A stretch of 64,000 nucleotides of DNA from the NCBI GenBank assembly GCA_963796455.1, contig CAWCLO010000001.1, positions 768,001 through 832,000 of the forward strand. The letters run 5' to 3'. Under the pieces are notes generated by a model that was given only the letters and a program-made list of their open reading frames with translations, was not told where the DNA came from and made no database searches. Positions 12,454-34,191 of the stretch are shown in pieces; within the stretch, counting starts at the first letter, position 1; each line of letters starts with the position of its first letter. The DNA comes from Candidatus Sulfomarinibacteraceae bacterium. Its GTDB lineage: Bacteria > Acidobacteriota > Thermoanaerobaculia > Thermoanaerobaculales > Sulfomarinibacteraceae. Made by a program: the position numbers and the translations under genes.

Positions 12454-12505
12454 TGGAGCCAACGGTCGGATTCGAACCGACGGCCTGCTCATTACGATTG
12501 AGCTG
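12454..12505 (-). repeat. tRNA-Thr 3' fragment (att-like direct repeat, outer copy)
   Basis: TGGAGCCAACGGTCGGATTCGAACCGACGGCCTGCTCATTACGATTGAGCTG matches 34117-34168 with 3 mismatches; no D-arm or 5' acceptor strand. Confidence 0.92.
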
Positions 12506-12572
12506 GTGTGATATTGATTTTAAAGAATTTAGATAGTTCCTTATCCGGTTTTACCCCACCATGAGTATCCGG

Positions 12573-12766
12573 TCATGGTGGTACCGTCGAAGACCACGCG
12601 TCGGTATTACCGGACTCGAAGTCATCGGCGAATCGAAGAGAGCGAAATGTAGAGCTTTTCGAGGAGGCTGAAAAATGAACGATCGATTCGCGATGAAAAC
12701 CGCGAACGTGGGAGTCGCGTAGACCCATCAGATCAACGGCCTCGTCCATGTGGTTCCGCGAGATCG
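12573..12766 (-). pseudogene. C-terminal remnant of a secreted protein
   Basis: Ends FADDFESGNTDAWSSTVPP*, the same terminal motif as the S8 protein; cut off at the truncated attC at 12767. Confidence 0.6.
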
Positions 12767-12814
12767 AGGCCGCGCGAGGCGCGGGCTTGGGTCCGCTGGA
12801 ACGAGGTGTTAGGT
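12767..12814 (-). repeat. Truncated attC site (R''-L'' half only)
   Basis: Minus strand ACCTAAC-ACCTC-GTTCCAGCGGACCCAAGCCCGCGCCTCGCGCGGCCT; nearly identical to 17656-17703. Confidence 0.75.
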
Positions 12815-12827
12815 TCCAGCAGACTTC

Positions 12828-13328
12828 TCACCTGTTGATGTACCTGGTTCCAAGCTTAGGGGGTGGCTTTCGACGACTTCTCAACGGGGTCCTGCTGCGC
12901 CAATCTCGAGAGTTCCTATTTCGGTTTCGGCTGTGTAGATTCTGTGGGTCGTCTGACAACGCGGGTCCGTAAAAAGAGCTTTGATCGATGCCTTCCTGCC
13001 AATCGACGAATTGGTCTTCCTTCCGGAATATACCCAGGTCTTCTAGCGAGTGGCGAAGGAAGACAAATACCCAACCTGAAACAGTGCAGAGCAGAAGAAG
13101 CCAAGCAACGAACTTCAGGTCGCTTCCTGCTCCTTGCCGGATGTATTCGCCCAACTGACCAGAGACATCAAACAAATCGAAGGTTGCAAGAAATACAAAG
13201 AGCAGTATTCCGGCCGCGGCGGCCCAGATCGCTACAATGGCGCAGCGCGCGAGTTGGGACTTTTCTTCTGACACCTTGTCACCTACTCTCCATAAAATCT
13301 TTACGAAGAGCGAGGCCGTAAATTCCAT
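12828..13328 (-). CDS. Hypothetical two-TM membrane protein (putative cassette gene)
   Basis: Two hydrophobic segments; ends just before the attC half-site; degenerate R'-like GTTCGGT about 20 nt upstream of the start. Confidence 0.55.
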   Translation of the reverse strand: MEFTASLFVKILWRVGDKVSEEKSQLARCAIVAIWAAAAGILLFVFLATFDLFDVSGQLGEYIRQGAGSDLKFVAWLLLLCTVSGWVFVFLRHSLEDLGIFRKEDQFVDWQEGIDQSSFYGPALSDDPQNLHSRNRNRNSRDWRSRTPLRSRRKPPPKLGTRYINR

Positions 13329-13445
13329 TTTCCCAGCGCCGTTGATGAGACCGAACAGACGTGAAGGTATTGTTGAGCAGTCAATTACAGATTCGGTTCC
13401 CCGTTCTGTGCTCGTGCCAGATCACGGGTCCTCGTACAGGTAGCG

Positions 13446-14746
13446 TTAGAGGTCCGTCCGGTGACTGGCCCGTATCTCTGCCGCCCGGGAATCCGCGACG
13501 CCGGCTTCTTCGGCAAAACCGAGCCAATTGCCCACAGATTTGATGACGCCGTCCAGCATCTCGTTCGCGCGGCTCTTTTTGATCCCAGCGGTATCCGCCA
13601 GGTTGATCAGATCATCCCGACTGATGTCGGCGCGCTTGCCGTTGACACTCATCTGGTGCCGGCTTGCCAATCCCCGTCCGGGTCCCAGGCATAGGTCACA
13701 TCAAAGGCAGGAGTCAAACTCCAGTCTCCCCGCCGATTCATCAGAAAGGCGATGTTCTTGACGTGATCGTCGTGATTGCGACCGACGATGTTGAACATCG
13801 CCCGCAACACCTGCTGATCGAGGTCCGCGCGAGGCATCCCGAGCCTCTTCATGACCTGGATCGCCTGCTCATAGGAATAGCTTGCAGGCTGACTGTAGTC
13901 AAAATGGGCGATGGCACCCAGGGATTGCATGTGGCGTTTTCCACCTGTCGATGTGCGATCGAAACGTTTGGTCATGAAATGGCTCCGACCGCCTTCATCA
14001 TGAAGCCTGCATGGCGTCATCGAGATCCCGGACTCAACGGCCATCAAGTGATAGGCATATTCGATCCGGCCGTAACCCAGCGGATCCGCAAGCTCTTTGT
14101 CACGGTTGTTCGAGACCCCGTCAAACTTCATGAGCCAGTGTTCAAAACCCTCACCGCCATCGACCTGACCTGACCGAAATTCGTTCGTGCCAGGATTCCA
14201 GGCGAGAATAGCCTTGGCGCGTGCGCCCCCTGCTGAGGTCCCAACCCGGAGAATATCCTCGATCACTTCTTTATCGTCAACGCCGGAAAACACGCCACCC
14301 AGGGCAGACCGTTTGTCGAGGATCTGGTTTGCCAGACCGACAAGTTTCGCCACCTCGATTTTGCTGGTGCTCGTAGGTGGTCCCAGGGTGGCCGGCTCGA
14401 ACTCGAGCGCTCCCATGCCTCGCACACCCACATAACAGAGGCGTTCTACAGGGTGGAAGCTCGTTGCTGTTCTTCCCTGCGAAGCGAGCCACGCATCAAT
14501 GACGGCATTTCCAAATTTGTCCGGGAGTGAGTCGGCAAGCAATCCCGGCAACCCCTTGAAAGTATTTCGAGCAAGCGCCGGGAATTCGAATGGATTCTCA
14601 CCGAGCGGCATCATGAGGGGAGCCAACTGGATGCCGCTGTGCAGGAAATCCGGCGCATACTGAAATACACCGACCTCCCGATCCTCCAGCCACGTCACGG
14701 CTCCAATGGTACTGCCCCAAAGCACCACTCTCGCATCGTTATTCAT
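13446..14746 (-). CDS. hipA: HipA family kinase toxin (frameshift near 13670)
   Basis: GLPGLLADSLPDKFG, TSAGGARAKA, WLMKFD, KRFDR, RNHDDHVKN, PAFDV, HQMSVNGK. Confidence 0.9.
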
Positions 14747-15107
14747 CGTCGTTCTCGCTGTCGCCCCAGACCCAGGGCCCGTGTTCCTCACCCCGTGCGT
14801 TCGGGCGGGCCCGCTTGCGCTCGAAACCCGTCGCCCCTATACGCTCGATCGGCCTGACGGTCGGATCCGGAAGCAGCGTCTCGAGATTCTGCTGAATGCC
14901 GAGAGCCGCCATCACACGAATCAACGTGTCGAAGGACACGCCCTGGCCCTTTTCGAGTCGGCCGATCGTCCGGGTCGAAACCCCGGCTTCCCGCGCGAGC
15001 TGTTTCTGGGTCACGTTTCGAGCAAGCCTGATGTTCTCGAGTCGCCTGCAGAGCGCGGCCTCGATTTGACCGCTCGATGCAATCGAAAAATCTATTTTAT
15101 ACGACAT
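14739..15107 (-). CDS. XRE-family HTH antitoxin partner of HipA
   Basis: RLARNVTQKQLAREAGVSTRTIGRLEKG; overlaps the hipA start. Confidence 0.88.
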   Translation of the reverse strand: MSYKIDFSIASSGQIEAALCRRLENIRLARNVTQKQLAREAGVSTRTIGRLEKGQGVSFDTLIRVMAALGIQQNLETLLPDPTVRPIERIGATGFERKRARPNARGEEHGPWVWGDSENDDE

Positions 15108-15434
15108 ATTTTACCTGCTATCGTCAATATTTCAAATTAATACGAAACATATTACCGATTTTACCCGCATCAACCTCTCGCCTGTTATCGGCAACATAAT
15201 GCCTATTATATATGATCACACCACCAAACAAGTAATTTTTTACTGATTATCCCAAAAATATGAGAAGGATCCAGTAAAACGATCCCCTGACAGGGTTGCA
15301 CGATGCTCGCTCAACCTTGAACTGGTTCTAGGCCCCGCTCCGCGAAACTCGCGTCAATTTGAGACAAAATCCAGAAACAGTACCTCAAGAAGAGACGACC
15401 CCGAGAAATGTGCTTCCATATCCTCAGCTGATTC

Positions 15435-15450
15435 TGGCATCGATATTGCG
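15435..15450 (+). promoter_or_regulatory. sigma54 (-24/-12) promoter candidate
   Basis: TGGCATCGATATTGCG with GG-N10-GC spacing, about 120 nt upstream of the protease ATG. Confidence 0.6.
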
Positions 15451-15567
15451 ACTTATCTATCCGGGAGACGCATCGGTTCAATCCGAGGATTGCAAGATGG
15501 CCAATCGGTAATCGCTGCTCGCTTGAAAAGAGAACCCGAGCCGCGGAAGTGCAAAAGGGGCACGCCC

Positions 15568-17490
15568 ATGACAAATCCAACCTGTTCAAATCCTGAGAGC
15601 CGGCCCGAAAAGCCAAAACAAAGTGTGATCAAAAAACGGTTGGCGGCACTCAAAAGCGGAACAGCTTTCGGCCTTGTCGGCGGTGCGTGGGCCGTCGCGG
15701 GCATCGTGGCGATCGGCTGGTCAGCCTCTACCCACGGATCGACAGTCGATCGCGGTCTGATCCAAAAGGCGGTTCGGTCCACGGTTTATATCGAAGTCGA
15801 AAGGGTCTTTCGAGGTTCCGATTTTTCGAATGCCGGGAGTGGTTTCTTTGTTCACTCGGACGGATTCATCATGACCAATTGGCACGTGGTTGCCGATCAG
15901 GTCGAGCTGCGCATGAGGGGAGTCATGCGCGAAATCTCCCTCACCGTCCTTCAGATCAACGTAATTGTCGACCCCGGTACTCCTCGCGAGCGAAAGTTAC
16001 CGGCTCGAGTGGTGGGGCGAGACCGAAAAAGAGATCTCGCACTCCTCAAGGTGAATCACCAACCTTCCCATTGGATCGAACCCAGTGACAGAGTTCGTGT
16101 TGATTTGATGGACGAAGTCTTTGTCGTGGGTTTTCCTTTTGGAGATTTGTTGACCTTCAACGAACATGGAGGGATTTCCCTCAAGGGTCACCCGGAGCCA
16201 AGCATCAACTCGGGACGAGTGACGTCCCTCCGGAAAGACGACCGAAACCGGATCGTCGCGGTCCAGACTGATGCGGCGATCAACCCTGGGAATTCGGGTG
16301 GGCCCATGCTTACCACGAGCGGGCAACTCGCCGGCGTCGTGTACTCGGGTGTTTCGGGAGGCTCACAAATAGGATTTGCGATCTCGCCCCAATGGGTGTT
16401 CGGCTTCTACCTCGACCGGCTCTTGACGGTCAGTTTCGTTCCACCCTATATTCCGAATCCTCGAAGTCCCGTCAAAATCACGATAGAACCGGGAATATTG
16501 CCGCTCAAAGCCTCCCGCATTTCGCTCCATCTGGAAGGAGCTCACTTCGATCCTTTCGACATTGAAATGAACGAGTCCCTCTCAGGGTGGGAAGCCAAGA
16601 TCTCCGTTCCAGAACGGCCCGAAGAGATCTCTGCGGAGCAGTCCTACTCGGCCTCCCTCAGAGTGTTCGACCAGGCCGGGAGACAGTCATTCCAACGGAA
16701 GTACCGACTCACCGAGGTGAATTCAGCGGAAACCGGCTTGAAGAGCCATCGCGACCCTGAAGCGATGATGCGTGACCGGAGACTCGCAAACTCATTGACA
16801 CTCGAAGAATATGCCCGAAAAAAGTCAGCCGAACGCGCCGCTGGCGAAGAGGACAATTCGAACTCTTCACAACCAGAGCAAACATCACCGAAACGCGACC
16901 CCGACCTCAAGGCTGAATTCCGTAAAGACCCTCCCGAGCTTCACACGAATCTCACCCTGTATGCCAAAGAGATGTATCGAGAAGGCCGCTACCAGGAAGC
17001 GGTCGAGGTCCTCGAGAGAGTTCTGAAATATGACCCGGGCGATGAAATGGCTCGCGAGTATCTGGAACTGGCCTCCGAGCGCCTTCAGATCCAAGAGAAC
17101 TCGAGTTCGCCCCCGAGGGACGGTGGTTTCTCGGTGGAGGAGACCGTGGTTCCAACGGAAACAGAAACGGCTGAGATTCGAGTGATCTTCGAATCCCCAC
17201 TTCGTGCCGGGAGGATCAATTTCTGGCTCAACGACGAAACCCTGGAGGTCGTCGATTTCGCTTTCAAAAAGAAGCTGTTCGAGAAGGGTCTTTCAACCCG
17301 GGTCGAACGGATCTTCGAGATCGCGCCCGGCCACCATCGGTTTTCCTTTTCTCTTGCGGACCAAGACGGCACGTCGCTGGGGCTCTTCTCATTCGAAGAG
17401 CCCTTTCAATCTGGAAGCCGATGGACGCTACGAATCGATATGCCAACGGCGGGATCAAAACCTCAGGCATTCCTCATCGAGAGAAAATGA
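15568..17490 (+). CDS. Membrane-anchored trypsin-like (S1C) serine protease with a TPR and C-terminal beta domains, no PDZ evident
   Basis: GSGFFV, TNWHVV, RDLALLK, TDAAINPGNSGGP; TPR at AKEMYREGRYQEAVEVLERVLKYDP. Confidence 0.88.
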   Translation: MTNPTCSNPESRPEKPKQSVIKKRLAALKSGTAFGLVGGAWAVAGIVAIGWSASTHGSTVDRGLIQKAVRSTVYIEVERVFRGSDFSNAGSGFFVHSDGFIMTNWHVVADQVELRMRGVMREISLTVLQINVIVDPGTPRERKLPARVVGRDRKRDLALLKVNHQPSHWIEPSDRVRVDLMDEVFVVGFPFGDLLTFNEHGGISLKGHPEPSINSGRVTSLRKDDRNRIVAVQTDAAINPGNSGGPMLTTSGQLAGVVYSGVSGGSQIGFAISPQWVFGFYLDRLLTVSFVPPYIPNPRSPVKITIEPGILPLKASRISLHLEGAHFDPFDIEMNESLSGWEAKISVPERPEEISAEQSYSASLRVFDQAGRQSFQRKYRLTEVNSAETGLKSHRDPEAMMRDRRLANSLTLEEYARKKSAERAAGEEDNSNSSQPEQTSPKRDPDLKAEFRKDPPELHTNLTLYAKEMYREGRYQEAVEVLERVLKYDPGDEMAREYLELASERLQIQENSSSPPRDGGFSVEETVVPTETETAEIRVIFESPLRAGRINFWLNDETLEVVDFAFKKKLFEKGLSTRVERIFEIAPGHHRFSFSLADQDGTSLGLFSFEEPFQSGSRWTLRIDMPTAGSKPQAFLIERK

Positions 17491-17650
17491 TCAACTCATG
17501 AGGAAGATGGAACGCAGCAAACAGCAACACGAACAGCGTCGAGGCCTGCAGAATGTGCAACCCTCTTCAAAAACTCGGCGCCGGTGGGGAAGCATCCCGA
17601 CAATACCGGTGATTCGGGGCAGTCTCTTCGTTCATGAGCTGTCTTCGGTG

Positions 17651-17703
17651 GCCCAAGGCCGCGCGAGGCGCAGGCTTGGGTCCGCTGGAATGAGGTGTTA
17701 GGG
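17651..17703 (-). repeat. attC site of the mazEF cassette (right arm degenerate)
   Basis: Minus strand CCCTAAC-ACCTC-ATTCCAGCGGACCCAAG...CTTGGG; 25 nt after the mazF stop; R'' complements the cassette's leading GTTAGGG at 18367-18373. Confidence 0.75.
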
Positions 17704-17728
17704 CTCATAGTCATCGAGCGGTCCTTCA

Positions 17729-18070
17729 TCACGTTAGGAGCGCATTGAGTTTCCCGAGCACTTCATTCATGACGGACTGAGGCACTGTGCATGCACACTC
17801 AGCCCTGCGAACTCGCCAATCGAGACTCTTGACCTGATCGGCCAGTACCACGCCTCCGATCTCGAGGTCTTCTGGAAGGGTTACTTCGAACGGATAGCCC
17901 TTGACTTTGCTCGTCACCGGACACATGAGCGCCAAACCAACCCGTTCGTTGTACTCGATCGGCGACAGAACCAGCGCAGGCCTTCGACCTGCCTGTTCGT
18001 GGCCGGCCTGCGGGCTCAGCGAAACCCAGACCACGTCACCTCGTTGCGGGGCCTCTTTTCCGGCTACCAC
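17729..18070 (-). CDS. mazF: MazF endoribonuclease toxin
   Basis: PQRGDVVWVSLSPQAGHEQAGRRPALVLSP, CPVTSKVKGYPFEV, DQVKSLDWRVR. Confidence 0.95.
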   Translation of the reverse strand: MVAGKEAPQRGDVVWVSLSPQAGHEQAGRRPALVLSPIEYNERVGLALMCPVTSKVKGYPFEVTLPEDLEIGGVVLADQVKSLDWRVRRAECACTVPQSVMNEVLGKLNALLT

Positions 18071-18306
18071 TCTTCGGATCCGACAGCGTCGCCGTAGATC
18101 TGCTCACCATGCACGTTTGCTTCCGTGACTCGCGTCAACAGGCTGCTGAGTTTATAACGCTGAATCGACGATGGGCGGATTACAAGATTTCCGTCTTCGA
18201 GAGAAAGCTCAACCGGGGTGTCCTGTGCCAATCCCAAGTCAGCCGCAAAGGCTTTCGGAATTCTGAGAGCCAGGCTGTTTCCCCACTTCTGAACCTGAGT
18301 TTTCAT
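18064..18306 (-). CDS. mazE: MazE/AbrB antitoxin
   Basis: MKTQVQKWGNSLALRIPK; GGAGG RBS; overlaps mazF. Confidence 0.95.
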   Translation of the reverse strand: MKTQVQKWGNSLALRIPKAFAADLGLAQDTPVELSLEDGNLVIRPSSIQRYKLSSLLTRVTEANVHGEQIYGDAVGSEEW

Positions 18307-18315
18307 AACGCCTCC

Positions 18316-18356
18316 GTATCTACAAAGAAGATACATTCTGGCGAGTCTGCTGTCAA
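18316..18356 (-). promoter_or_regulatory. mazEF sigma70 promoter with palindromic operator
   Basis: TTGACA-17 nt-TATCTT; overlapping inverted repeat GTATCT-N7-AGATAC. Confidence 0.8.
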
Positions 18357-18366
18357 GCCGTGTCGC

Positions 18367-18445
18367 CCCTAACGGTCAGGAAGTTCAGCGGACTACAGTC
18401 GGACCCGCCGCTGAGGTGAGGGTCCGCTGGAATGAGGTGTTAGGT
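18367..18445 (-). repeat. attC site (complete, 79 bp)
   Basis: Minus strand ACCTAAC...TTCCAGCGGAC...GTCCGCTGAA...GTTAGGG, with one unpaired base in L''. Confidence 0.85.
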
Positions 18446-18452
18446 TGATGGA

Positions 18453-18663
18453 TCACAGCGACGCTCTGAACTCTTCAACGGTGAGGCCGGCGTCTCGGAC
18501 GATTCCACCCAGTGTGAATGCGTTGACAGGATTGTGCCGCGGAATCGTGACAATTCGCGTGCCGTCGGTCATAACGATATGTTTGCTCTGGCGGGCGATG
18601 CGAAATCCGGCCTTTTGAGTGCCCTGACGGCCGCAAGGTGGTTACGCCAGGTATTCGAGGCAA
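18453..18663 (-). CDS. hicA: HicA family toxin (frameshifted)
   Basis: Stitched: LPRIPGV..LAAVRAL..GFRIARQSKHIVMTDGTRIVTIPRHNPVNAFTLGGIVRDAGLTVEEFRASL. Confidence 0.8.
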
Positions 18664-18665
18664 CT

Positions 18666-18860
18666 TCAGACCGCGATATCGATCTCGTGAACCACGAGTC
18701 ACCGATGAGATCTCAACGACCTCAAGGTACTCACGAATCCTGCTTCGATATTTTCGAGAGCTTCCCTTTCGGTGTCACCTTGAGACCAACATCCTGGAAG
18801 TCCGGGTACAGAAACGGCGAAGCCTTCTTCGTCTTCGTGCAGGGCTACTTTGTACTTCAT
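18666..18860 (-). CDS. hicB: Short HicB family antitoxin (frameshifted)
   Basis: MKYKVALHEDEEGFAVSVPGLPGCWSQGDTEREALENIEA..IREYL; GGAG RBS. Confidence 0.85.
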
Positions 18861-18885
18861 GGCTGTGTCTCCAGACCCATTGTAA

Positions 18886-18954
18886 ACCTAACGGTCCGAG
18901 TTCAGCGGACACCACCCGCCGCGGGTTGGGGTCCGCTGAAACGAGGTGTTAGGT
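18886..18954 (-). repeat. attC site (complete, 69 bp)
   Basis: Minus strand ACCTAAC-ACCTC-GTTTCAGCGGAC...GTCCGCTGAAC-TCGGACC-GTTAGGT. Confidence 0.85.
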
Positions 18955-18970
18955 CATTCCATTTAAGTCT

Positions 18971-19366
18971 TTACATCCCCAAGAGGGAATCAAACCCCTG
19001 AATTTGGAAAAAGACTGCCAAAAGGCCAAGCGCACCCAAGATCCATCCGCAAATGGCGATTGTGGCCCATCGGCGATATCGAGCCAACAGATTGATGGCT
19101 TCAATTTCTCCGATAGCCCAATTTGGGGTTTCTCGGTACCACTTCCAGAATAACGAGCCGCCAGCCTGCGTGCTTGAGAGGTTCCAGGACCCAACCTCCC
19201 GTTTGCTTTCGCCGTCACCGGGTGGCCGTCCGTCGCTGATCCGATCTGATGGTGATTCTCATACTGATATTCGATGGTCTTGCGGCGACGCTTGTCGCTA
19301 TCGAAATGCTGTCACAAATACAACGAGACCGATAGATAGCAGTTCAAGTCAATGTCTCTAGAACAT
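18971..19366 (-). pseudogene. Small two-TM hypothetical cassette gene, broken reading frame
   Basis: Fragments ELLSIGLVVFVTAF and DGRPPGDG...SLFWKWYRETPNW...RYRRWATIAICGWILGALGLLAVFF..GM*; stop lies just before the attC. Confidence 0.5.
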
Positions 19367-19371
19367 CCGAA

Positions 19372-19436
19372 ACCTAACTACTGTTAGCGATACTAACGAA
19401 TCGGATGGAAACGTACTCCTGGAGCAAACTAACAAC
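19372..19436 (-). other. Candidate attI site
   Basis: Minus strand GTTAGT..GTTAGT-ATC-GCTAAC-AGTA-GTTAGGT: R box, inverted L-like box and two upstream direct GTTAG copies; the R box complements R'' of the first attC. Confidence 0.5.
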
Positions 19437-19555
19437 TCTCCTGCCGGTCGAGACACCTTTTCGCATGTCCCCTGTATCAAGCACTATCCCAGTGAATCGT
19501 GGCGCAGGCTTTTGAGTTGTTATCGTGCTTGGATCGCACCCTAACAGGACGGGGG

Positions 19556-19624
19556 TTAGCGTGCGCACGGTTTGCCCCAGGGCTTCGAATCAGGATCGCA
19601 GCTCGGAACAAACACTCGTCTCAT
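19556..19624 (-). CDS. Putative 22-aa peptide MRRVFVPSCDPDSKPWGKPCAR
   Basis: AAGGAGA RBS immediately before the ATG (short spacing); TACAAT and a sigma54-like motif upstream. Confidence 0.35.
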   Translation of the reverse strand: MRRVFVPSCDPDSKPWGKPCAR

Positions 19625-19850
19625 GTCTCCTTCTTCCATTGTAGTCCACCGGTTCACAACATCGGCATATCGATGCCAAGAGGAACGCTCCAACTGTCTT
19701 TTTCCGTCGCCCTGTTCATATTCTTGTTCGTGGCCGTATTCAGACGTTTTACCGCTCTCTTCGACAACTCCCGATCCAACGTTTCAGAGGCAAAACGAAT
19801 TTTGGCGCCTATCGGTACGTATGCGATGTGCCGGTGGCACCTCGATGGCC

Positions 19851-19885
19851 AAAAAAACTTCAGCCCGCCGATCTGGCGGGCTGAA
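19851..19885 (-). terminator. Rho-independent terminator after the middle tRNA-Thr fragment
   Basis: Stem TTCAGCCCGCC/GGCGGGCTGAA followed by a T-run on the minus strand. Confidence 0.82.
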
Positions 19886-19899
19886 AGTATTTTAGGCTT

Positions 19900-19947
19900 T
19901 GGAGCCAACGGTCGGATTTGAACCGACGACCTGCTGATTACGAATCA
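19900..19947 (-). repeat. tRNA-Thr 3' fragment (att-like direct repeat, middle copy)
   Basis: First 44 nt match 34117-34160 with one mismatch; similarity stops at the anticodon loop. Confidence 0.92.
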
Positions 19948-20015
19948 TGGCGGAGAAAGGGATGCCACTTGCTGGTCAATCCTTTGAGGACGGATGTTGT
20001 GCCAATGCTCTGGTT

Positions 20016-21531
20016 TCAAACCCGGATTGATTTACGAGAGCGATATCGCCAGTGGGCTGCAGAACCGCTCTCCGCCGCGTGATGCATTTCAACGGTACGG
20101 ATCTGGACTTCGAACACAAGTCCGTCGCGGTCTCGAACACTTGTGTGAAGGCTTTGGTACCCGTTGGCTTTCGGTTCGGCGATGTAATCCTTGAACCGAA
20201 ATGGTTCAGGATCGAAGAGCCGATGGACGGTATTGAGTGCAAGGTAGCATTCGTCTTGGCTCGGCACGATGATGCGGAAGGCGAGCAGGTCGTGAACTTC
20301 CTCGAACGTCAGGTTTTTCTCCTCCATTTTTCGCCACACCCCGGCGGCGTGTTTCGTGCGGCATTGAATCGCTACAAGTGATACTCCGTCCGCGGAAATC
20401 GAGGACTTGATATTCTCTTCGGTTGCCGCGCACCAATCTGCGCTGGCCATCGACCATCGTCTCGAGGTCGCGGGTGACTCGTCCAAAGGCAGCGCGAATC
20501 AAGCACTTTGAGAGCCGCGTTCTCGGCGCGGGCTGCGGAGCTCCATTTCACCAAACTTCTCAGCCTCCAAGGCATCTTGCTCCCAGATCTGGAGGGCAGC
20601 CTCCCACGCACGTGGATCTTCTGGAGCGTACTCCTCAAGAAGCGCGCAGCGGCTGCGGAGGTAGCGCCGGAAAACTCCCTGATCTGTGGGTTGCCCTGGG
20701 CGATTCAATTCAAGAGGGTCAAACAGCTGGGGATCGACATCAGACGTGGGAAGTGATTTCGAGGCTTCCATCGCTCGCCTGTGCGCGGCAACCAAGAGCC
20801 GGGCGCCATTGGTCAGACTGGCGCTCATATGGTGAAAACGCCAGGCTAGCCACCGCAGCTCGCGCGCAATATCACCCTGCCGAAGCTTGGCCGGGTAACC
20901 CATTTCGACCTTGTGGATGGACGTCAGCAGGTGATTCAACGGCCTCGTAACGAGCAAATGGATGGTCAGCTGGACCGCGATAATTATTGCCAAAAACTGC
21001 AACGCCTATATCGAGCCAGGCGGCGTATCGCCGGGTCGTCATTTCAGTGATGAATTCGGAATCACTCTGCCAGGCGGTCAGTACTCCACCTTCGGTTTCG
21101 AAAAATTTTGACCTGAACGGGAACCTCGGCGTGGAGTGAATCGGCGGCGGAGAGGAAATGGTGCTTGAGAGTGCCGACGCTATCGGTCGGCCGTCGTTAT
21201 TGACGAGCAATAGATTGAAGTCGGACTGGCCTCGGGCGACCTCTGCACGCGCACTGGACAACAGTTGTTTCTCTATCTCGCCCAGACTCGAGGCCCTCTC
21301 GATTTCAGCGGCCAACGGTGCCAACGATTCAGCCAAGAGATCCTGGCGGGCAACGAGTTCTCTGCGCTCCTCCCGATACAGTTGCACAGCTGTTAGCCCA
21401 CCGAGGAGCAGGCCAACGAGCACCGAGATGGTCACGCCGAGCACGACACCCAAAGGGAGCCCCCCTCGTGGTGGCAGGCGGTCCCCTTCAATGAACGAGC
21501 CCTTTTCCATGATTTTCGACGGGTCGGACAT
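20016..21531 (-). CDS. Membrane sensor (TM-extracytoplasmic-TM)-HAMP-(p)ppGpp synthetase (RelA/SpoT SYNTH) fusion, frameshifted
   Basis: TM1 LGVVLGVTISVLVGLLLGG; TM2 and HAMP FLAIIIAVQLTIHLLVTRPLNHLL...ELRWLAWRFHHM; SYNTH motifs RTKHAAGVWRK, DLLAFRII, KDYIAEPKANGYQSLH, EVQIRT..MH..AE.G.AAHW.Y. Confidence 0.75.
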
Positions 21532-21586
21532 TGTTTCGATGGTGGTAGAAGATGACGTCAAGGCATCCATACGCGCTTTGCGGAGC

Positions 21587-21602
21587 TGCAAACAACGTGC
21601 CC
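21587..21602 (-). promoter_or_regulatory. sigma54 promoter candidate for the HAMP-synthetase gene
   Basis: GGGCACGTTGTTTGCA (GG-N10-GC); inverted repeat GTGCAAT/ATTGCAC just upstream (21612-21643). Confidence 0.6.
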
Positions 21603-21787
21603 GTAACGACAGTGCAATGCTCCCACGGGGTTTGGGATTGCACGCCAAATTGGCACCTGCCGGGGTTTGATCGCGACGGACGCGGTTTTGCGAGAATTAG
21701 GCCGTGGGGAGCATAATAAGTTGTGTGGAACTCATTGATTGGAGAGGCGGGGCCCTCAGTCAGTTCTACGGAGTCATCGATTGAAAC

Positions 21788-22222
21788 ATGGGCAGAAAAC
21801 CATAAGCCGGCCGCGGCAGTACCGACACAACTGTTGCTGGCGTGGGTGATGTGGGCGACTGTGGGGTCCGCTCTGGTTTTTCTGGGGGCGTTGTGGCTGT
21901 GGGAGTCGGCACCGGTTGTTGCGCCTTGGGTCGCGGCGGGTTCTCAAGCGGTCGGACTGGTCAAATCACGGCTGGTGCTCGACCGAGCAGCGCGAAGGGT
22001 TGTCGACCGAATTTGTGCCCGAGGCGATGGCCGTTGCCTCGGAGGGTTCCTCTCCCTGCCCACTGGGGTCTTGTGGCCTTGATGATGATCGTCGGCCGCC
22101 TGCTCCGAGGCACCCTCGCACATGGAATCGTCGGTCCACTCTATATTGCGGTTGGCACGGCTCTCTGCTTGTCTTCACGCATCTCCTGGCGGGCGTGGCG
22201 CGAGTCACGCTCGACCACCTGA
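21788..22222 (+). CDS. Hypothetical 4-TM membrane protein (frameshifted)
   Basis: LLLAWVMWATVG, KSRLVLDRAARRVVDRI, CLGGFLS, WGLVALMMIVGRLLR, YIAVGTALCLSS in ORFs 21723..22082 and 21842..22222; start uncertain. Confidence 0.6.
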
Positions 22223-25239: not shown

Positions 25240-25506
25240 TTGCGACCCGCGTTGTTGGTATTCATGACCTTCGGTGGTCTCATCATGGCCGGTTTTGGGG
25301 TGCTTCAGTTTTGGATCGATACGGAATGGCTGCATGAAGCCGTCATCGATGGTCATCGGGGTGGTGGATCCCGGAGATGGAGTCAAGGGAAGAGCACGGT
25401 CGTAGCTCCTCCTGCGGACACGGTTTTTTGCGAAGGGGAAGTATTGCTGCTCCTCGGGAGAATCGACAACCTCAATCCATTCACCACCACATATCAGACA
25501 TCCTGA
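25240..25506 (+). pseudogene. Short ORF with a TM segment and TrkA_C-like tail, probably a remnant
   Basis: VVAPPADTVFCEGEVLLLLG resembles the end of TrkA_C. Confidence 0.4.
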
Positions 25507-25558
25507 CGATAAAGATTAACCTCTGTCGAAAACCACCAAACAGAGGAGTATACGCAGA

Positions 25559-28500
25559 ATGGCTGGTGCGCTGTCATTAAAAAATCTGCTACGTAAGGTC
25601 TTCCCGTTTCTCGAATGGTTTAGGGAACTGACACCAGCGACGATTCGCGCCGACTTCGTTGCCGGCCTCACCGTCGCCCTGGTTCTGGTGCCCCAATCCA
25701 TGGCCTATGCGCAGCTTGCCGGTCTGCCTGCGTATTACGGTCTACGCGGCCTGCCCTCCCACCGATGATCGCAAATCTGTTCGGGTCGAGTCGGCAGCTG
25801 GCGACCGGACCGGTCGCTGTCGTGTCACTGATGACAGCGGCTTCCTTGGAACCCCCGCCACCGCCGGCGGCGAGCAGTTCATCGCCTACGCGATTTTGCT
25901 CGCGCTCATGGTGGGAATCTTCCAGTTCTTCCTTGGTGTAGCCCGGCTCGGGCTTGTCGTGAACTTCCTGTCGCACCCCGTGGTCAACGGTTTCACCAAC
26001 GCCGCGGCATTGATTATCGCCACCTCGCAGCTCAACAAAATCTTCGGTGTGCAGGTCGAGAAGGCCGAGCACCATTACGAAACGATCATCCGGGTGGTGG
26101 AATCCGCGGTCCACTGGACCCATCTGCCGACCTTTGCAATGGCTGTTGTTGCATTTGCCGTCACGTTCGGCCTGCGGCGTCTCAACCCGCGGCTGCCGAA
26201 TGTGCTCATCGCCGTGGTCGTGACCAGCCTTCTTGCGTGGGTTTTTGGATTCGAGCGCAATCAGACGCTGTCAGCAGGCGCAGTCGACTCGCCGCGGCTT
26301 CCTCTCCTGATCGAAGAATTCAATTCGGCAGTCACCGAGCAGCGCCACATGGAACAACTGCGGTCGGATATGTGCCATATTTGACGCTGGAGTCTCGGCT
26401 GAAAGCGGCTCCTTTTGTCAGGGTTGCCATTCGAGCCGAGATGTCGAGGCCTTCGTCAATAGTGCGGTGCTCACCAACGACGACGGCGTGCTCACCCGCG
26501 TGCTCGCCCTTCATCAGATGGCCGGACTCCTCGATACCCATATCGCCGAGCTCAAGGAGCAGGTGTCCGAGAAGCGGACCGACCTGCTCGATCATCTTCG
26601 ACCGGGTCGTGGGCGAGGACACGCATGGCGGCCTTTTCGAGCGTGGGCGCGTTCCGGACAATGGTTTCCACCAGATGGTCGGCGTGGTGGCGGCTCAAGG
26701 TTGGTGGCCAGGCCCTGACCCTGAAAACCTCGTGTTCGTTGGCGGTGGTGCGGTGGTCGGAACCATTCCACGCGGACTGCCTTCGCCAAAGATGCCCCGC
26801 CTCGACATGACCGTCATTCCGAAGCTCTTCGCACCGGCCATCATCATTTCGCTCCTGGGATTCATGGAGGCGATTTCGATCGCCAAGGCCATGGCCGCCA
26901 AGACGCGTCAAAGGCTCGACCCCAACCAGGAACTCATCGGCCAGGGTCTCGGCCATGGTTGGCTGCGTGTTCCAGAGCTACGCCGTTTCAGGTCGTTTTC
27001 GCGGTCGGCCGTCAACCTTCAGGCGGGGGCCAGGACGGGTCTGTCCACGTTTTTAAGTCGGCGTCGTGATGATCGTCCTCCTGTTTGCGCCGCCGATGCT
27101 CGATGACCTTCCCCAGGCGGTGCTCGCGGCGATCATCATGATAAGGTGATCGGCCTGCTCAATGTGAGTGGATTTGTTCATGCCTGGCGGACCAGCCCTT
27201 TCGACGGCCTGGTATCGGTCATTACATTCGTCGGCACCCTCGCCTTCGCCCCCCACCTCGAATGGGGCATTTTCCATCTGGGTCGTGCTTTCGCTGGGAG
27301 GCTATCTCTTCCGATCGATGCGGCCACACGTCGTGCGCCTTGCACCGGCCGCAGACGGAACCGTGCGCGAGCCCGGCTCACCGGCATGATCGGGCTCTGT
27401 CGCTACATTGCCGTTGTCGGTTTCGACGGTCCCTCGAATTTCGCCAGCACCTCGTACCTCGAGGATGAGATTCTGCGACAGGTTGCGGAGCATCCCGACC
27501 TCCGCTATTTGCTCCTTTCCGGTAAGGGCATTAGTGAGATTGACGCCTCCGGTGAGGAAACGTTGCGCGACCTCGTGGATAGGCTGCGGGCAACGCAGAT
27601 CGAGATCGCCGTCACGCACCTTTCGGACAAGGTTCTCAAACGTTCCTGAAACGCTCCCGCCTCTTCGATCGGATCGGCGAGGAAAACATTTTCGCGACGG
27701 ACGTGCGGGCGATAGCAGCAATCTCACCGACGGCTCACCGCCCTTCCGACGAGGTTGAATGCCCGTTTCACGGTGTCGTCCCTCGCCTCGCCGAACTTTC
27801 GTTGCACCCCGATGGCTCGTCGATGATGCCGAGCGCTACCGCCTGGCGACCTGTCGCCACCTGGCCGTGTTAGTATCGAAAGCCCGATCAACCGGCGAGC
27901 GTGCGCTATGTCGAGGAGTGGGTGTTCGAAAGAGTCGCGAATCGCCCCGATCTTCGTCACGTTGTGTTCGTCGCCCACGGGATGACCTCAATCGATGAGG
28001 AAGGAACATCGCCTGAGGCTGCTCGCGAGCGAACTCAACAAGAGGGGCTTAGAGGTTTCATTTTCTTGCGGGATCCCGGATGATGTGGTCGACGTGTTTG
28101 TCCGCGCTGGCCATCCCGAAATGTTGGAGCCATCCCACCTTTACCCGACCGGGGTAGTTGCCATAGCATCGGTCTGGGCGCAGGCCCATGTCGCCTCTGA
28201 TGAGCGGACCTGTCCGCTGTATCCCCTGGCACCTCAGTTGACCGAACTCGGTGTTCACCCGAAGGGTGGGCTTCGTGATGCCATCCGCTCCGGTCTGCAC
28301 GTCTGCCCGACGATCGGCGTTCTGAGGCTGGACAGCGCTTCGGGCTTTGCCACCCACGGGGTCGACGATCGGCGGCGAGTTCCATCGCTGGCGGCAACGT
28401 CGTGAACGGGTCAAGACGGTGATTTTTGTTTGTACCGCTCTAACCCGTTTGGAATCCGCCCAGGCCGAAAACCTCCTCGAACTGGTGAACCATGCCCGTA

Positions 28501-29152
28501 ACGCCGGATTCAAGGTGGCACTGTGCCGGCTGCCGGACGCGGCAATCGAACGCTTGCCCGTACCGGCGTCGGTGACAAAGTGGGTCTCGACGACATCTAA
28601 ATCGGTGACCGGCGCCCTCGCTGAAGCGTGGAATGAGGCACATCCGACCTCCGGCGATGAGCACTGTCCGCTCGAAAAGCTCTTGCCGCACGTCACCGAG
28701 CTCTCTCTCCACGAAGACGGCTCGTATCTGAAATTCCGCCAGATACTCTCTGGCGCGATGCCGTCATATCTCGATGGTCCGGTTTGACGGCAGGCTCGAT
28801 TACTCCACGCTTTCACATTTTGGTCGCGGTATCGACAGCGTGGTTGACAACTCTCCCGAGCTTCGCTGCCTCATCATCGCCGGCCACACCCTGGAACGGA
28901 TCGATGAAGAAAGCGGCGGAGGCCCACTGGAGGTCTTCGACCGCCTGCGAAAACGGGGTCTGCGGGTGTGTGAGCGGGCTCCGCGACGAAGTGATCGATG
29001 TTCTCAGACAGACGGGTGTTCGCGAAACCATTGGTGAAAAGTGCATCTTCCCGACCCAGGCAAAGGCCATTGAGAGCGCCTACGAGGAAACACATCAAGA
29101 TTCGGATGAGAATCACTGCCCGTTGATTGAGGTGGTGCCGCTGACGACGTGA
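25559..29152 (+). CDS. SulP/SLC26 anion transporter with a long loop insertion and four tandem STAS domains (heavily frameshifted)
   Basis: [67 protein letters not shown]; four STAS-like repeats, each ending H...CP. Confidence 0.85.
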
Positions 29153-29237
29153 CGGCACCGCTGAAACTCAGACCGGGAAACTCCAATGACAACCGAAACG
29201 GTCGCCTACGGGGATCGAAGAGGTGGAATCCTCGCCG

Positions 29238-29668
29238 CTACCAACCCTTTGTGTGCATGATGCCGTCGATGTTATCGAGGGCGATTTTTTCTTCGTGCGC
29301 CAGACGCGCCGCACGAGCAGATCGGATGCGCTCCACCAGAGTCTCGACATCGGTTGGTTTCTCGAAGATATCTACGGCTCCAAGCCGTGTCGCCTCGATA
29401 GCGGTTGCATGATCGCCCGTCCGGAAAGGATCATCACCTGCAGATCGGGGTGCGCCTCATGGAGTCTGCGGAGTGTCTCGATGCCGTCGAGACCAGGCAT
29501 GGCGAGATCCAGCAGTATGGCGTCAAAGCTTTGATCCTCGATCAATCTCAGAGCTTCCTGCCTGGACGAAGCGCAGGTGACCTCGAGACCCCGGATGCTC
29601 AACCGCTCGGCGAGCGCCTCGAGAAAGGTGGTCTCGTCATCAACCAGTAGAACGCGATCTTTTGCCAT
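29238..29668 (-). CDS. Single-domain response regulator (frameshift near 29400)
   Basis: VLLVDDE, LLDLAMPGLDG, ILSG, FEKP. Confidence 0.85.
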
Positions 29669-29687
29669 TCAAGCCTCCATTTTGCGA

Positions 29688-30378
29688 TCATACACCCGTT
29701 GTGGCCGCCTTCATCGGTGCATCAAGGCTGAGAACTATCCGTGTCCGCCATCGGGATCCGGCATGATGTGCGGTGCCGTTGTCAGAGCCGCACAGCCGGT
29801 TTCGAGTGCTGCGGCCCTCGATTCCTCGCTCGTAAGATCGGGCAATGGGTCGGCGCTGCTCACGACCACCTTCTAGGGCACCGGCCTGCTCTCCACCCAT
29901 AGCTCGATCCGTCGTTCGGATGAGGCAGACCCGATCGCGAACATGACACAACAATGCAGGGCCACCAGGAGAGAAACGGGTCGCCATGGTGTTCGATGGG
30001 CGACGCCGGAGGACGAACCGTCAATTTGACTTCCGCCAGACGCGCTTCCCTTGCGGCCAGCAGACCAAAAAGCGCCAGGTTCTCTCCGAGATCAAACGTC
30101 GTATCGGAGTTGTCGACGCTGTGCGACAGACTGTGGAGACAGCGGTTGATCTCTTCACCGCGGATGACCTGCGATTTGATCCGGCCCGCGAGATCGGCGA
30201 CTCGAGCAAGGCCGGCCCCACCGCCGTCGGCGTTGGCTTTGAGGATGTCCTGCTGAAGGCCGGTGAGTTCATTGATGATGTTGAAGATGTTGTTGACCTC
30301 GTGTGACAGTCCCGCACCCATCGAGCCGAAAAACAGCAGGCCCTCTCTCGCCAGGCGTTGTTGTGGGTCATCGCTCAT
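29688..30378 (-). CDS. Short cytoplasmic histidine-kinase-like protein (HisKA, degenerate HATPase)
   Basis: GSMGAGLSHEVNNIFNIINE H-box; frameshifted C-terminus. Confidence 0.7.
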
Positions 30379-30760
30379 CGCCGTGTATCTTTTCTGGGCT
30401 GTTGACAGCTTGCCTGATCGTCTCCAACAGGTCCTCGAGGTCAATCGGTTTTTGGAGGTAGGCCACCGCCCCGAGACGACGGCCGATCTCTCTGTCCTCG
30501 GTCGAGCCGTGACCAGTCATCAGTACGACCTTGACCTCTGGATGGCGTTGGGTGACCGTTCTTAGGACTTCCAATCCGCCGATCCCAGGCATCTTGACGT
30601 CCATGATCACCACACCGAAAGAACCGTCCCGTAGCAGATCGAGAGCCTCGTTCCCCGACGTGACACCAACGGACTCGATACCGCGCAATTCAAGCCTCTC
30701 GACGACGGTAGTGACAAGCTCCTCTTCGTCGTCAACGAACAACAACCGCTGGTTCTCCAT
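30368..30760 (-). CDS. Single-domain response regulator
   Basis: [25 protein letters not shown]. Confidence 0.9.
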
Positions 30761-30765
30761 ACTTC

Positions 30766-32482
30766 TCACCCCTCTTGAGACATCGGCAGAACGACCGTGA
30801 AACGGGTTCCCTTGCCGGGTTCACTTTGAACCCGGTCTCTCCACCGAGCTTCCGAACGATGCCATAGGTGATCGACAGCCCGAGACCGGTGCCGTCACCG
30901 GCCTTGGTAGTGAAAAACGGTTCAAAGATCCTCTCCATGTGTTCCTTCGGAATACCCACGCCATCGTCGGCAATCGCGACAAAAACCTGGGGAAGCTCCT
31001 TCCCTCGCGATCTCGATTCCGATGCTGCCCCCGTCCGAGACGGCTGCAAAGGCGTTGTTCAGAATATTGAGAAAGACCTGTTGCAGTTGTCCGCGATCAC
31101 TCGTGATGGTCGGAACATCGGGTTCGAGTTCAAAACTCACCTTGACGTCTCGATACTCGGCCTCCTTTTCGAGGAAGGTCAGAACTTCTTTGAGCAGGTT
31201 CTCGAGATCGATGGTCTCGGTCTGAACATCCATGTGGCGCGCAAATCCGAGCAATCGATGGGTGACCTTCTTGCAGCGTTGAACCGACCGCAGAATCGAA
31301 TCAACAGCCGCGATGAGCCGCTCTTTGTGTTCGATCTCGGGTCCAGCCGTGACCAGATCCCGAAGAAGACCTGCTTTTTCGTTGACGATTGCGAGCGGAT
31401 TGTTGATCTCGTGCGCAACGCCCGAGGCCAGCCGTCCGATAGAGGCCAGTTTGTTGCTGTACTCCATGTGGTGATACAGCGCCGCCCGTCTTTCATCAGA
31501 CTCTCGAATCCTCCGGATGAGGAGGCCGGAACCCCAAAGAATGACACCCAAAATCAAGGCCGCGCTGACGACCAGAAAGCCGACGAGTTCATTGCGAAGC
31601 GTGAACCACCGCCCCATCGCCTCGTGGGCAGGTTTGACGTGGACCAGGATGAAAGGTGAACTCGCGATGTATGCGGAGGACATGAAGATTCTTTCGCCGA
31701 GGATGTCGACGATCTCGACATCCTCAACGCTCGGGGAGAAGTGGGGCACCGGCATCGGAAACGGTTGCAGGATCTCTCCGTATCGCCGCGAAGGCGATTG
31801 CAGAATTCCGTCGCGATTGATGAGGAACACATCGTCGGATGGTTTCAAACCGGCTGTGAGAATCTGCTCGCTGAGCATGTCCGCATCGATGGTCGCGCGG
31901 AGAACGTAAAATGCACCGTCGACCTGATCGTGCTTGGTCGCGATGGCGAAGTGCGGCGAGTTGCGGAATCCGAGGAAAACATCGCTGGTGTAGGTGCCCA
32001 GTCGGGCAACCTCGTGAAACCAGTCTTGATCAACATAGTTTCGGCCCGAAAGCTCGAAGGGGCCCGAGTAGCATGGCTGTTCTCCTCGGTCGTCGATCAA
32101 CCCGAGGTCGACGAAAGCCCCCACCTCCAGCGAACGATTGAGGTTGGAAATCATCCGCATGAGGGTTTTTTCGTCACACAGATCGGAATATGGGCGTTCG
32201 TGAACCAGAAAAGTCAGGGCCGATCGTCTTTCGGACAAAAAAGAGCTCGAGCGATCTTTTGGTGTTGAGGGTCAGACGTGCCATAGGCTGCACCGCTTCG
32301 GCCTGCAGCGCGTCGCGGTACTGTACATAATTCATGAATGTCGTGATGAAGAGCGGAACGAGAGCCACCGTGGCCGTCGCAGCAACGACCAATCGTCGGA
32401 GTGTCCGATATGCCCTTTTTGGCACCCGTCCTTCCAACTCGGCGCGTTCTGCCGTGGCCTTGTCGGCAGGGCGGGCGCTCAT
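30766..32482 (-). CDS. Membrane sensor histidine kinase, Cache-type sensor, NtrB-like core (frameshifted)
   Basis: Two TMs; [46 protein letters not shown]. Confidence 0.88.
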
Positions 32483-32490
32483 GGACTCCT

Positions 32491-33716
32491 TCAATCTCCA
32501 GCTCGACCCGTGCGGGATTCTTCAAGCCGACGGTAGGCCGCTTTCATAGTTTCTGTGAGCTCCTCGATATCGACAGGTTTCTGGAGGTAAGCAAAGGCGC
32601 CGAGCTCTTTCGCCAGTCTTTTTTCTTTGTCAGATCCGTGCCCAGTGAGGATAATCACTTCGGTCAATGGATGAGTTCGCTTGACTCGGCGTAAAACTTC
32701 CAATCCATCAATACCCGGCATCTTCAGATCGAGAACCATGACCTCGGGTTCATCGCTCTCAATCATCGCCAGCGCCTGTTCACCGTCGTAGGCGATCCAG
32801 GTGTCATGCGCCGGGTCTGAAGGCGTTCGGAAAGGGCGTTGACGAATTCGTTCTCGTCATCGACAAGCAATATCTTGGACGGCACGTCGATGTCGATGTC
32901 GAATGAGATACCGGGTTCACGATACTGAGGTCCCGGTCGCGCGGTGGCCGATCGGACACCTGGCACTGTGCTTGCCGTTTCGGTGAGTTCCCGTTCGTAA
33001 CGCTCAAGAAATATTGAATGCTTTTTGATGAGAATCGTGATTCTGCCGTCACTGCAGATGACGTCAACGTCAGCGCCTGCCTCTGCCAGGGTTACCCCGA
33101 CTGCAGCGGCCAATCGGAAATCCTGCATCGCTTGCTCGACCGATGGGGTGACCACGACAGCGGGTAGCAAGGCATGGTTGGAGACCATCTCCACTGCATC
33201 GTCCACGGACATTTCCTGCATGGCGAGGAATATGTCGTACAAGTCCCGATCCCACGGACTGCGGTCGAAGAGCACACCGGTCCACTCCGCCCTTTGCTCA
33301 TCGTCCGCTCTGATCTGGCGTTGGGCTTCGCGGTTTGAGAATCCTTCGGACATCGCCTGCCTTTTCCGGGACTCGGGGGTGCCGGCGAGACAGACCTTCA
33401 GCACATGGGTCAGGGAGGGTGGCAAGAGATGCCCTGCCCGTCCCAGGTAAACTCGAGATTCGGCACCGAAAGTTTCGGCTGCCGCAGCCCGTAGGTGTGC
33501 GATAAGGCGGACCTGATCTTTGCGAAAACCATCGAGCAGTGAGCGAGGCCCATACATCAATTTTTTGAAACGGCTGGATTCGATACCCGACCGCTCCGCA
33601 GCAAGGTCAAACAGTTCTTCGTCGCTCAGCTTTCCTGCGCCGAGGCGCTCTTGTACCCCGTCAGCGACCTCTCGACCTCGGCAGAAGACACCGGCGTCAA
33701 TTGCAACTAATGCCAT
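32491..33716 (-). CDS. Cytidylate-kinase-like domain fused to a receiver domain (frameshift near 32800)
   Basis: N-terminal CMK-like fold with degenerate P-loop (YLGRAGHLL, DDEQRAEW, LYDI); C-terminal LLVDDE...LDLKMPGIDG...LTGHG...QKP. Confidence 0.8.
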
Positions 33717-34001
33717 GCCGTACGCTCCCTCCGGTTCTACGGGCTCGCCCTGAGCATTCCGCTCCGTTGCATAAGGTTTTACCCCGCGGCAACCTCCAGA
33801 GTCTAGCACCGAAATGAGACAACTCACGCCTGCTCGTGTGGCCTATTCAAGACTTTCTTGGCGCGAAGCCGAAGAGTTCTTGCCTCGAGATGAAAGCGAA
33901 TACTCATTGCAGAAAAAGGGCAAGCTGATTCGGGAAACGACGAACTCAGAAACAGCAACATCGAAGTGCAGACGGAGAAGCATACTGGCTGGGTCACGGG
34001 T

Positions 34002-34116: not shown

Positions 34117-34191
34117 TGGAGCCAACGGTCGGATTTGAACCGACGACCTGCTCATTACGAGTGAGCTGCTCTACCCCTGAGCTACGTTGGC
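34117..34191 (-). tRNA. tRNA-Thr (CGT)
   Basis: GCCAACG acceptor, TAGCTCAG D-arm, GCTCA-CTCGTAA-TGAGC anticodon arm, GGTTCAAATCC T-arm, encoded CCA; 75 nt. Confidence 0.97.

Follow-up and report, generated by a model that had tools for sequence, protein, structure and literature searches.

The signals known to control (p)ppGpp synthesis, namely stalled ribosomes, metabolites and partner proteins, are cytoplasmic (PMC10118264, accessible part). Long RSH enzymes are distinguished by the specific motifs C-Y-x-x-L..H and RxKD (PMC3153485, accessible part). In Rel-Tt, a central three-helix bundle together with helix alpha-13 has been described as a "transmission core" that swivels as the synthetase opens (10.1101/670703, portion available), and Rel/RelA proteins without the Core domain are said to be SYNTH-inactive (PMC9974481, portion available). 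The words "transmembrane" and "HAMP" are absent from the main text of the RSH classifications PMC3153485 and PMC7229694, which mention no TM/HAMP subfamily in their accessible parts; in the available supplements of PMC7229694 HAMP is named for neighbouring kinases only, among the matches listed, and the family treated here is not described in the accessible parts of PMC10118264, PMC7797070 and PMC10902248 or in the supplements of PMC8528874. Full-text literature searches, with subscription papers outside their scope, yielded no paper describing a TM-HAMP-SYNTH architecture, in agreement with an earlier note on this DNA whose author knew of no characterised protein of this kind. Two JGI records carry the automatic label "ppGpp synthetase/HAMP".

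A gene with this architecture is present in the window, i.e., the whole stretch of 64,000 nucleotides that was analysed. The fusion of sensor and synthetase is real; its reading frame, domain organization, distribution and possible function are described below.

Reading frame and domain organization of the fusion gene

The complete TM-sensor-TM-HAMP-linker-SYNTH gene occupies 20016..21570 on the minus strand, as delimited by tblastn and DNA alignment to intact homologs and by an indel-free short-read contig. After discounting six single-base indels (net +4) it comprises 516 codons, the most frequent length in close homologs. DNA alignment to four intact relatives localized a compensating pair in the sensor domain (a deleted base near 21140 and an inserted one near 21116) and single extra bases near 20992, 20534, 20491 and 20447. 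The earlier note had counted about four indels and placed the start at 21643; the DNA alignment and the short-read contig give six, and residue 1 of two intact homologs maps to the ATG at 21570, which is the gene start. The parts it had named (TM1, outer domain, TM2, HAMP-like segment, linker and SYNTH) are all present in the sequence.

A short-read contig (run X1) that is 98% identical to the window covers 20035-21788 with 33 substitutions and has none of the six indels, and contigs of a second study lack five of them; these contigs represent close strains, not certainly the strain of the window. In addition, when the neighbouring clc and sulP genes are aligned to intact orthologs, 7-8 gaps per kb break the frame, a rough figure in which alignment noise is included. 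Because the indels are absent in close strains and clc and sulP have frame-breaking gaps as well, the six frame breaks most likely arose as errors of the assembly. In the close strains no stop separates the HAMP and SYNTH parts, and intact fused homologs are many, evidencing a single fused gene, as had been proposed.

All parts of the input half are encoded on the minus strand. TM1 (21391..21459) was placed by homolog hydropathy and is a helix in both models. It is followed by an extracytoplasmic domain of ~125 aa (21019..21390), for which AlphaFold2 (pLDDT 89), Foldseek and Atlas predict two helices and four strands in a small PAS/PDC-like arrangement. TM2 (20949..21018), which contains the frameshift near 20992, was located by homolog hydropathy, DNA alignment and the short-read contig. 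The HAMP domain and the signalling helix after it (20757..20948) were delimited by PF00672 matches in the distant members P0069 and P0099, by invariant residues and by a dN/dS of 0.13, and a variable linker (20688..20756) shows low pLDDT and a dN/dS of 0.37.

The AlphaFold2 model of residues 33-272, built from 91 sequences (pLDDT 89), contains a long TM1 helix, another helix, four strands, a TM2 that continues into HAMP and then a long helix. Its best Foldseek match is an integrative WalK model (E 1.6e-5, TM 0.69), and weaker matches (E 0.006-0.02) include an LapD-like output domain, the CusS sensor and a kinase PAS domain, with ribosomal chains mixed in. Atlas clusters for the outer domain are GAPES3, LapD and sCache at 0.97-0.98. 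A dCache_1 match was obtained in one member only (E 0.007), the Cache/PDC likeness being otherwise at the fold level. HH-align matched the input module, sensor included, to a SpoIIE group with 99.3% over 227 columns, an alignment that is not independent because the group was found with the same profile. The full-length model has a pTM of 0.45, so that its HAMP-to-bundle geometry is of low confidence.

The designation of the segment after TM2 as HAMP-like holds in that P210, G224 and E237 are invariant in 76 members and PF00672 exceeds the Pfam cut-off in the two distant members mentioned above, but the cut-off is not reached in the close homologs of the window's clade or in most members; NarQ and MCP matches are weak (E 0.1-0.6). 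The sensor domain keeps one length across phyla and has no invariant polar residue in the 76-member alignment. Three His residues (positions 107, 118 and 187 of P0003) are conserved in part of the distant members (26, 36 and 29 of 62, respectively) and absent from the window's clade, and one of them aligns with a His of SpoIIE-type receptors. As judged from sequence, this set is a possible metal or pH site.

The output half begins with a three-helix bundle derived from long Rel, consisting of the HD end and the HD-SYNTH linker (20500..20687, minus strand), which was recognized by a Rel profile match, by alignment to 26 long RSHs and by model helices at residues 295-313, 319-338 and 342-356. 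Homology to long Rel extends from approximately residue 300, corresponding to the KLADRLHN helix of Rel, through the HWxY motif. The absence of an HD hydrolase, claimed previously, is correct for the metal-binding part, which is gone, but in the alignment to Rel the last HD helix still aligns, a degenerate remnant with which the linker bundle now begins. In the genome of the window PF13328 matches only the separate rel gene. The equivalence of the retained bundle to that of the Rel-Tt transmission core is proposed from the alignment and from domain boundaries. Four shorter members of 373-437 aa (P0093, P0103, P0108 and P0110) are devoid of the bundle, which therefore is not universal in the family; P0110 also lacks motif 1. 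These shorter forms may be either true deletions or artefacts of assembly.

The SYNTH domain (20043..20378, minus strand) contains the RxK, catalytic Asp, RFKD, G-loop Tyr, EVQIR and HWxY motifs and was defined by PF04607, conservation and a dN/dS of 0.115; the piece 20016-20486 matches RelA_SpoT (PF04607) with E 1.9e-39 and 134.9 bits versus a cut-off of 27. R403, K405 and K413 are invariant in all 75 rows with coverage there, and D426, R431, Y470, E486, Q488 and R490 in 76 of 76 members. By motif spacing, not superposition, the conserved SYNTH residues match R249, D272, R277, Y329 and Q347 of Rel-Tt, and loss of the equivalents of these five marks the dead pseudo-SYNTH of Acinetobacter baumannii SpoT (PMC9974481, portion available). 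Motif 1 reads RxKHxAGxWxK, with Gly where Rel has Ser: this position is Gly in 62 of 75 members, including the window, Ser in 10 and Ala in 3. In FaRel2 the Ser holds the ATP triphosphate (PMC11782079, accessible part). Thus the SYNTH motif blocks, described earlier as complete, are so with respect to PF04607 and the catalytic residues but not to the Ser of motif 1. The RFKD sequence suggests a preference for GTP (PMC3153485, accessible part). Among 16 close genes dN/dS was 0.115 for SYNTH, 0.13 for HAMP, 0.18 for the bundle, 0.25 for the sensor and 0.37 for the linker, values obtained from pooled, non-independent pairs. Foldseek superposed the output half on Rel catalytic regions with an rmsd of 2.2-2.7 A over ~210 columns for the best chains.

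Proteins of the family end 3-67 aa past HWxY in the 76 members (median 32, window 14), evidencing that the Core domain is missing in addition to the TGS/ACT tail whose absence had been noted; TGS, helical, ZFD and ACT/RRM domains are absent from the 76 members. Rel-Tt 1-355, whose end lies before the Core as judged by motif mapping, yielded product in the crystal (10.1101/670703, portion available). The absence of the Core makes this family a test of the published claim that the Core is needed. The C-termini encoded at six loci (L019, L020, L022, L026, L028 and L029), as those of many distant members, carry a short helix rich in Trp and Arg, which may be what is left of the first helix of the Core or may bind to the membrane.

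Distribution, promoter and genomic neighbourhood

A search with a 152-aa middle piece provided 54 longer homologs, 53 of which contain PF04607. At least two TM peaks were predicted by hydropathy in 47, the remaining seven being proteins of 270-439 aa, mostly fragments, and two predicted TM helices occur together with a RelA_SpoT domain in 46 of the 54. An N-terminal 297-residue profile that excluded SYNTH retrieved 127 representatives at 50% clustering, 124 of them new, and domains were scanned in 93 of these (31 under 260 aa were left out): PF04607 was found in 63, no output domain in 10, and 20 formed a weak tail of HAMP receptors with SpoIIE (6), kinase (7), GGDEF (1) or no listed output (6). 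At E<=1e-10, 61 of 70 scanned matches have PF04607 and the other nine no different output domain.

Among species-representative genomes the gene was located at 21 loci, distributed over Acidobacteriota, Myxococcota, Thermodesulfobacteriota, Pseudomonadota (two tubeworm symbionts among them) and a single Nitrospirota record. The closest relatives with a name are Ca. Sulfomarinibacteraceae and Thermoanaerobaculia, and the host probably belongs to this group. One frame runs through into SYNTH at 19 of these loci and a frameshift is present at two; with the 46 fused homologs, this confirms the existence of intact TM-HAMP-RelA_SpoT proteins that the earlier note had proposed to search for. One further member, P0036, is also broken, at positions other than those of the window gene. 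The family is rare, and every carrier found is uncultured: the gene occurs in 5 of 24 genomes of the same genus, in none of 16 of another family of the order (one false kinase match removed) and in 2 of 400 in a phylum-wide sample with five candidates scored per genome. No members were found in the viral contigs or plasmids searched. A separate long RSH (Rel/SpoT) is encoded in all 21 carrier genomes, and the separate rel gene of the host is intact, as are its HD motifs. A tree built from 39 members and 26 long RSHs of carrier genomes places the family on one side of a 100/100 branch, apart from the long RSHs; this tree is unrooted, does not include small synthetases and its bootstrap is not fully settled.

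A sigma-54 type -24/-12 element precedes the gene at 21587..21602 (minus strand), with 10 of 11 consensus positions and in the same place in relatives. Scores of at least 9/11 within 170 nt of the anchor were obtained for 11 of 20 upstream regions, ten of these among the 12 acidobacterial ones, and for 18 of the 22 metagenome loci with enough upstream DNA, several of which are near-copies; only 2.5% of 5121 random windows reached 9/11, and seven of eight non-acidobacterial loci have no such site within 170 nt. The genome carries rpoN and 19 full-length activator domains. The upstream sigma54-type promoter reported before is thus supported as a sequence element by its conservation in acidobacterial and metagenome loci. 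In the window and at L011, L012, L014 and L015 the ATG is fixed 16 nt past the site, which predicts a leader of ~6 nt; such a leader would be too short for a ribosome-binding site. A short palindrome ~40 nt 5' of the -24 element (21644..21656, minus strand), seen by eye in the window and at L011-L015, is a candidate activator site, and showed no genome-wide enrichment (26 matches vs 21 for the control). A terminator-like hairpin of 12 pairs, scored on both strands, lies at 19858..19886.

The fusion gene is located at the end of a 14.2-kb islet together with clc, sulP, DUF2270 and two-component genes. This islet is bounded by an intact tRNA-Thr (34117-34191) and a copy of its 3' part directly downstream of the fusion gene (19900..19951, minus strand), a copy not seen at 21 related loci. 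With another 3'-part copy at 12454-12505, these elements bound tandem islets of 14.2 and 7.4 kb; no integrase was found within the former and no tyrosine integrase on the contig. The adjoining islet (12506-19899) has a lower GC content (54.7%) and contains HipA with an HTH protein, MazEF, an HicB-like fragment and a trypsin-like protease, with a 47-nt repeat between genes, at 12767, 17656, 18398 and 18907, reminiscent of cassette boundaries. The region 25500-33830 encodes an extended SulP with STAS, a cytidylate-kinase-like/receiver protein, a Cache kinase and several receivers, and parts of this set recur, in other orders, beside the fusion gene at L011, L012 and L015. Eight repeats of ~150 nt at 4156-5303 probably encode a repeat protein.

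The commonest neighbour in the close clade is a divergent gene on the plus strand (21780..22222), frameshifted in the window, for a small membrane protein of 145 aa; it adjoins the fusion gene at 16 of 46 loci, in that clade only, has no Pfam or NCBIfam match and falls in unnamed Atlas clusters. Clusters of this small protein are also found in Thermodesulfobacteriota and Bacteroidota. Among the 46 loci clc occurs at 8, DUF2270 at 9 and sulP at 2, all within the close clade, and none of these genes nor that of the small membrane protein was found at the 19 distant loci; many of the contigs are short. Neighbours at distant loci are often related to ion or metal transport (Kdp, copper ATPases, ZIP, HupE, ArsR and Cus) and several are not, a tally made with no background control. 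Neither a small hydrolase (PF13328) nor a conserved antitoxin-like neighbour was detected among 142 + 42 neighbouring ORFs or beside the 46 loci. The earlier note had proposed that a long-RSH synthetase was rewired to an extracytoplasmic signal and, from clc, sulP and DUF2270, that this signal is an ion, an anion or pH. The first part agrees, as to gene structure, with a fused gene that places a long-RSH-derived catalytic region behind TM-sensor-TM-HAMP, control by an outside signal being putative; the second is weak because the link to clc and sulP is limited to close kin, and the synteny with these genes is likewise conserved only there.

Proposed function and alternative explanations

Since a predicted membrane sensor is joined to an alarmone synthetase, an outside signal likely triggers (p)ppGpp synthesis without the ribosome. 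We estimate a probability of about 0.6 that the protein is a one-component transmembrane receptor that makes (p)ppGpp in response to a signal from outside. The fuller proposal falls somewhat short of even odds and is advanced tentatively: a new class of one-component receptors in which an outside signal directly switches (p)ppGpp synthesis, independently of the ribosome, through HAMP and the allosteric bundle of Rel, and in which the three His of distant branches may read metal or pH. The predicted topology (TM1, PAS/PDC-like domain, TM2, HAMP) would share ancestry with the input half of receptors of the phosphatase, kinase and cyclase types, and by analogy with HAMP proteins the protein is probably dimeric. 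A stimulus at the outer domain would move TM2 and HAMP, and this motion would be relayed via the signalling helix to the retained three-helix bundle, opening the synthetase site much as the bundle of Rel swivels with helix alpha-13. The product would be pppGpp made from GTP, as the RxKD motif suggests, and could be cleared by the host's own bifunctional Rel, whereas a sigma-54 activator may set when the receptor is made. The signal probably differs between branches of the family.

It is unlikely that the protein is a weak or dead membrane RSH that binds nucleotides or a partner, such as the host Rel, and signals without making alarmone. The missing Core, said to be necessary in long RSHs (PMC9974481, portion available), the mostly Gly-substituted Ser of motif 1 and P0110, possibly an artefact, in which even motif 1 is missing, point in this direction; nevertheless, all residues that mark the known pseudo-SYNTH by their loss are invariant in 75 or 76 of the 76 members, SYNTH has the lowest dN/dS of all parts, and the Rel-Tt construct mentioned above made product in the crystal although motif mapping places its end before the Core (10.1101/670703, portion available). 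Quite unlikely, too, is a membrane-tethered synthetase whose output depends chiefly on sigma-54 transcription, with the outer domain and HAMP serving as anchor and dimer scaffold and not as a switch. Such a role would suit a small sensor lacking an invariant polar site and the sigma-54 sites at 18 of 22 metagenome loci, but it is at odds with the invariance of the HAMP core residues under strong selection, with a single sensor length held across phyla and with the seven of eight non-acidobacterial loci that have no sigma-54 site within 170 nt.

A signal-triggered toxin, which by (p)ppApp, tRNA pyrophosphorylation or a ppGpp flood would produce an abortive response to envelope attack, for instance by phage, is very unlikely. 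The long-RSH residues C-Y-x-x-L..H and RFKD are kept, SYNTH matches long Rel (E ~1e-45) far better than it does small synthetases (E no stronger than 1e-10), the 142 + 42 ORFs include neither a PF13328 hydrolase nor a conserved antitoxin-like neighbour, and none of the viral contigs or plasmids searched has a member; these observations outweigh the patchy distribution (5/24 and 2/400 genomes), the location in a tRNA-bounded islet adjoining one rich in toxin-antitoxin genes and a partial PADLOC PDC-S33 match over SYNTH only. Finally, that the window copy is a decayed pseudogene, or that two genes are involved (a membrane HAMP protein and a small synthetase), is highly improbable and, for the family, largely refuted: the six frameshifts, the breaks at 2 of 21 genome loci and in P0036 and the intact host rel gene would fit decay, but the 98%-identical contig has none of the indels, the second study lacks five of the six, clc and sulP have frame-breaking gaps too, and P0036 breaks elsewhere.

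If the preferred reading of a transmembrane receptor is true, it would link the exterior of the cell directly to the stringent alarm, giving this alarmone a cross-membrane, ribosome-independent input like those of cAMP and c-di-GMP. The family may also be regarded as a natural experiment on RSH allostery, with the hydrolase cut off at the start of the proposed signal-relay bundle, and a chimera gated by a ligand would make a useful tool.

Comparison with known systems

The family resembles long RSHs, compared through the structures of Rel from S. aureus (7oiw), B. subtilis (8acu/6yxa), S. equisimilis (1vj7), M. tuberculosis (5xnx) and T. thermophilus (6s2t) and of E. coli RelA (5kpv), in the three-helix bundle, the linker helices, the SYNTH fold and RxKD, in the retention of the long-RSH-specific Cys/Tyr/Leu/His/Phe and in 39% identity over 181 aa to the host's Rel. 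Unlike them, it has TM-sensor-TM-HAMP in place of the HD active site, no Core, TGS, helical, zinc-finger or ACT/RRM domain and mostly Gly for the motif-1 Ser, and forms a separate branch; the TIGR00691 score is 189 bits versus a cut-off of 499. With small alarmone synthetases (RelP/RelQ, YwaC/YjbM) and toxSAS (FaRel, FaRel2, CapRel, Tas1) it shares being synthetase-only, accessory to a long RSH and patchily distributed, but the sequence match is much weaker (32 bits for the YjbM model versus a cut-off of 320), the long-RSH linker is kept and the proteins are ~510-550 aa long with two TM helices. In contrast to toxSAS, no adjacent antitoxin or small hydrolase was found at the 46 loci, the small membrane gene being restricted to the close clade; a toxSAS with a fused, self-inhibiting arrangement is conceivable. 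Assignment to either long RSHs or small alarmone synthetases therefore fails by domain criteria.

The input module, whose homology to a SpoIIE-type group extends over 227 columns, is like that of TM-sensor-TM-HAMP receptors with PP2C/SpoIIE, histidine kinase or GGDEF outputs. Among the solved relatives of this half (WalK, CusS and LapD), it matches the WalK model and, weakly, LapD-like and CusS sensor domains. What distinguishes the family from these receptors is its output, an RSH synthetase, and we know of no characterised HAMP receptor with such an output. It is a conserved RSH architecture, apparently undescribed, that represents a variant on a known receptor plan.
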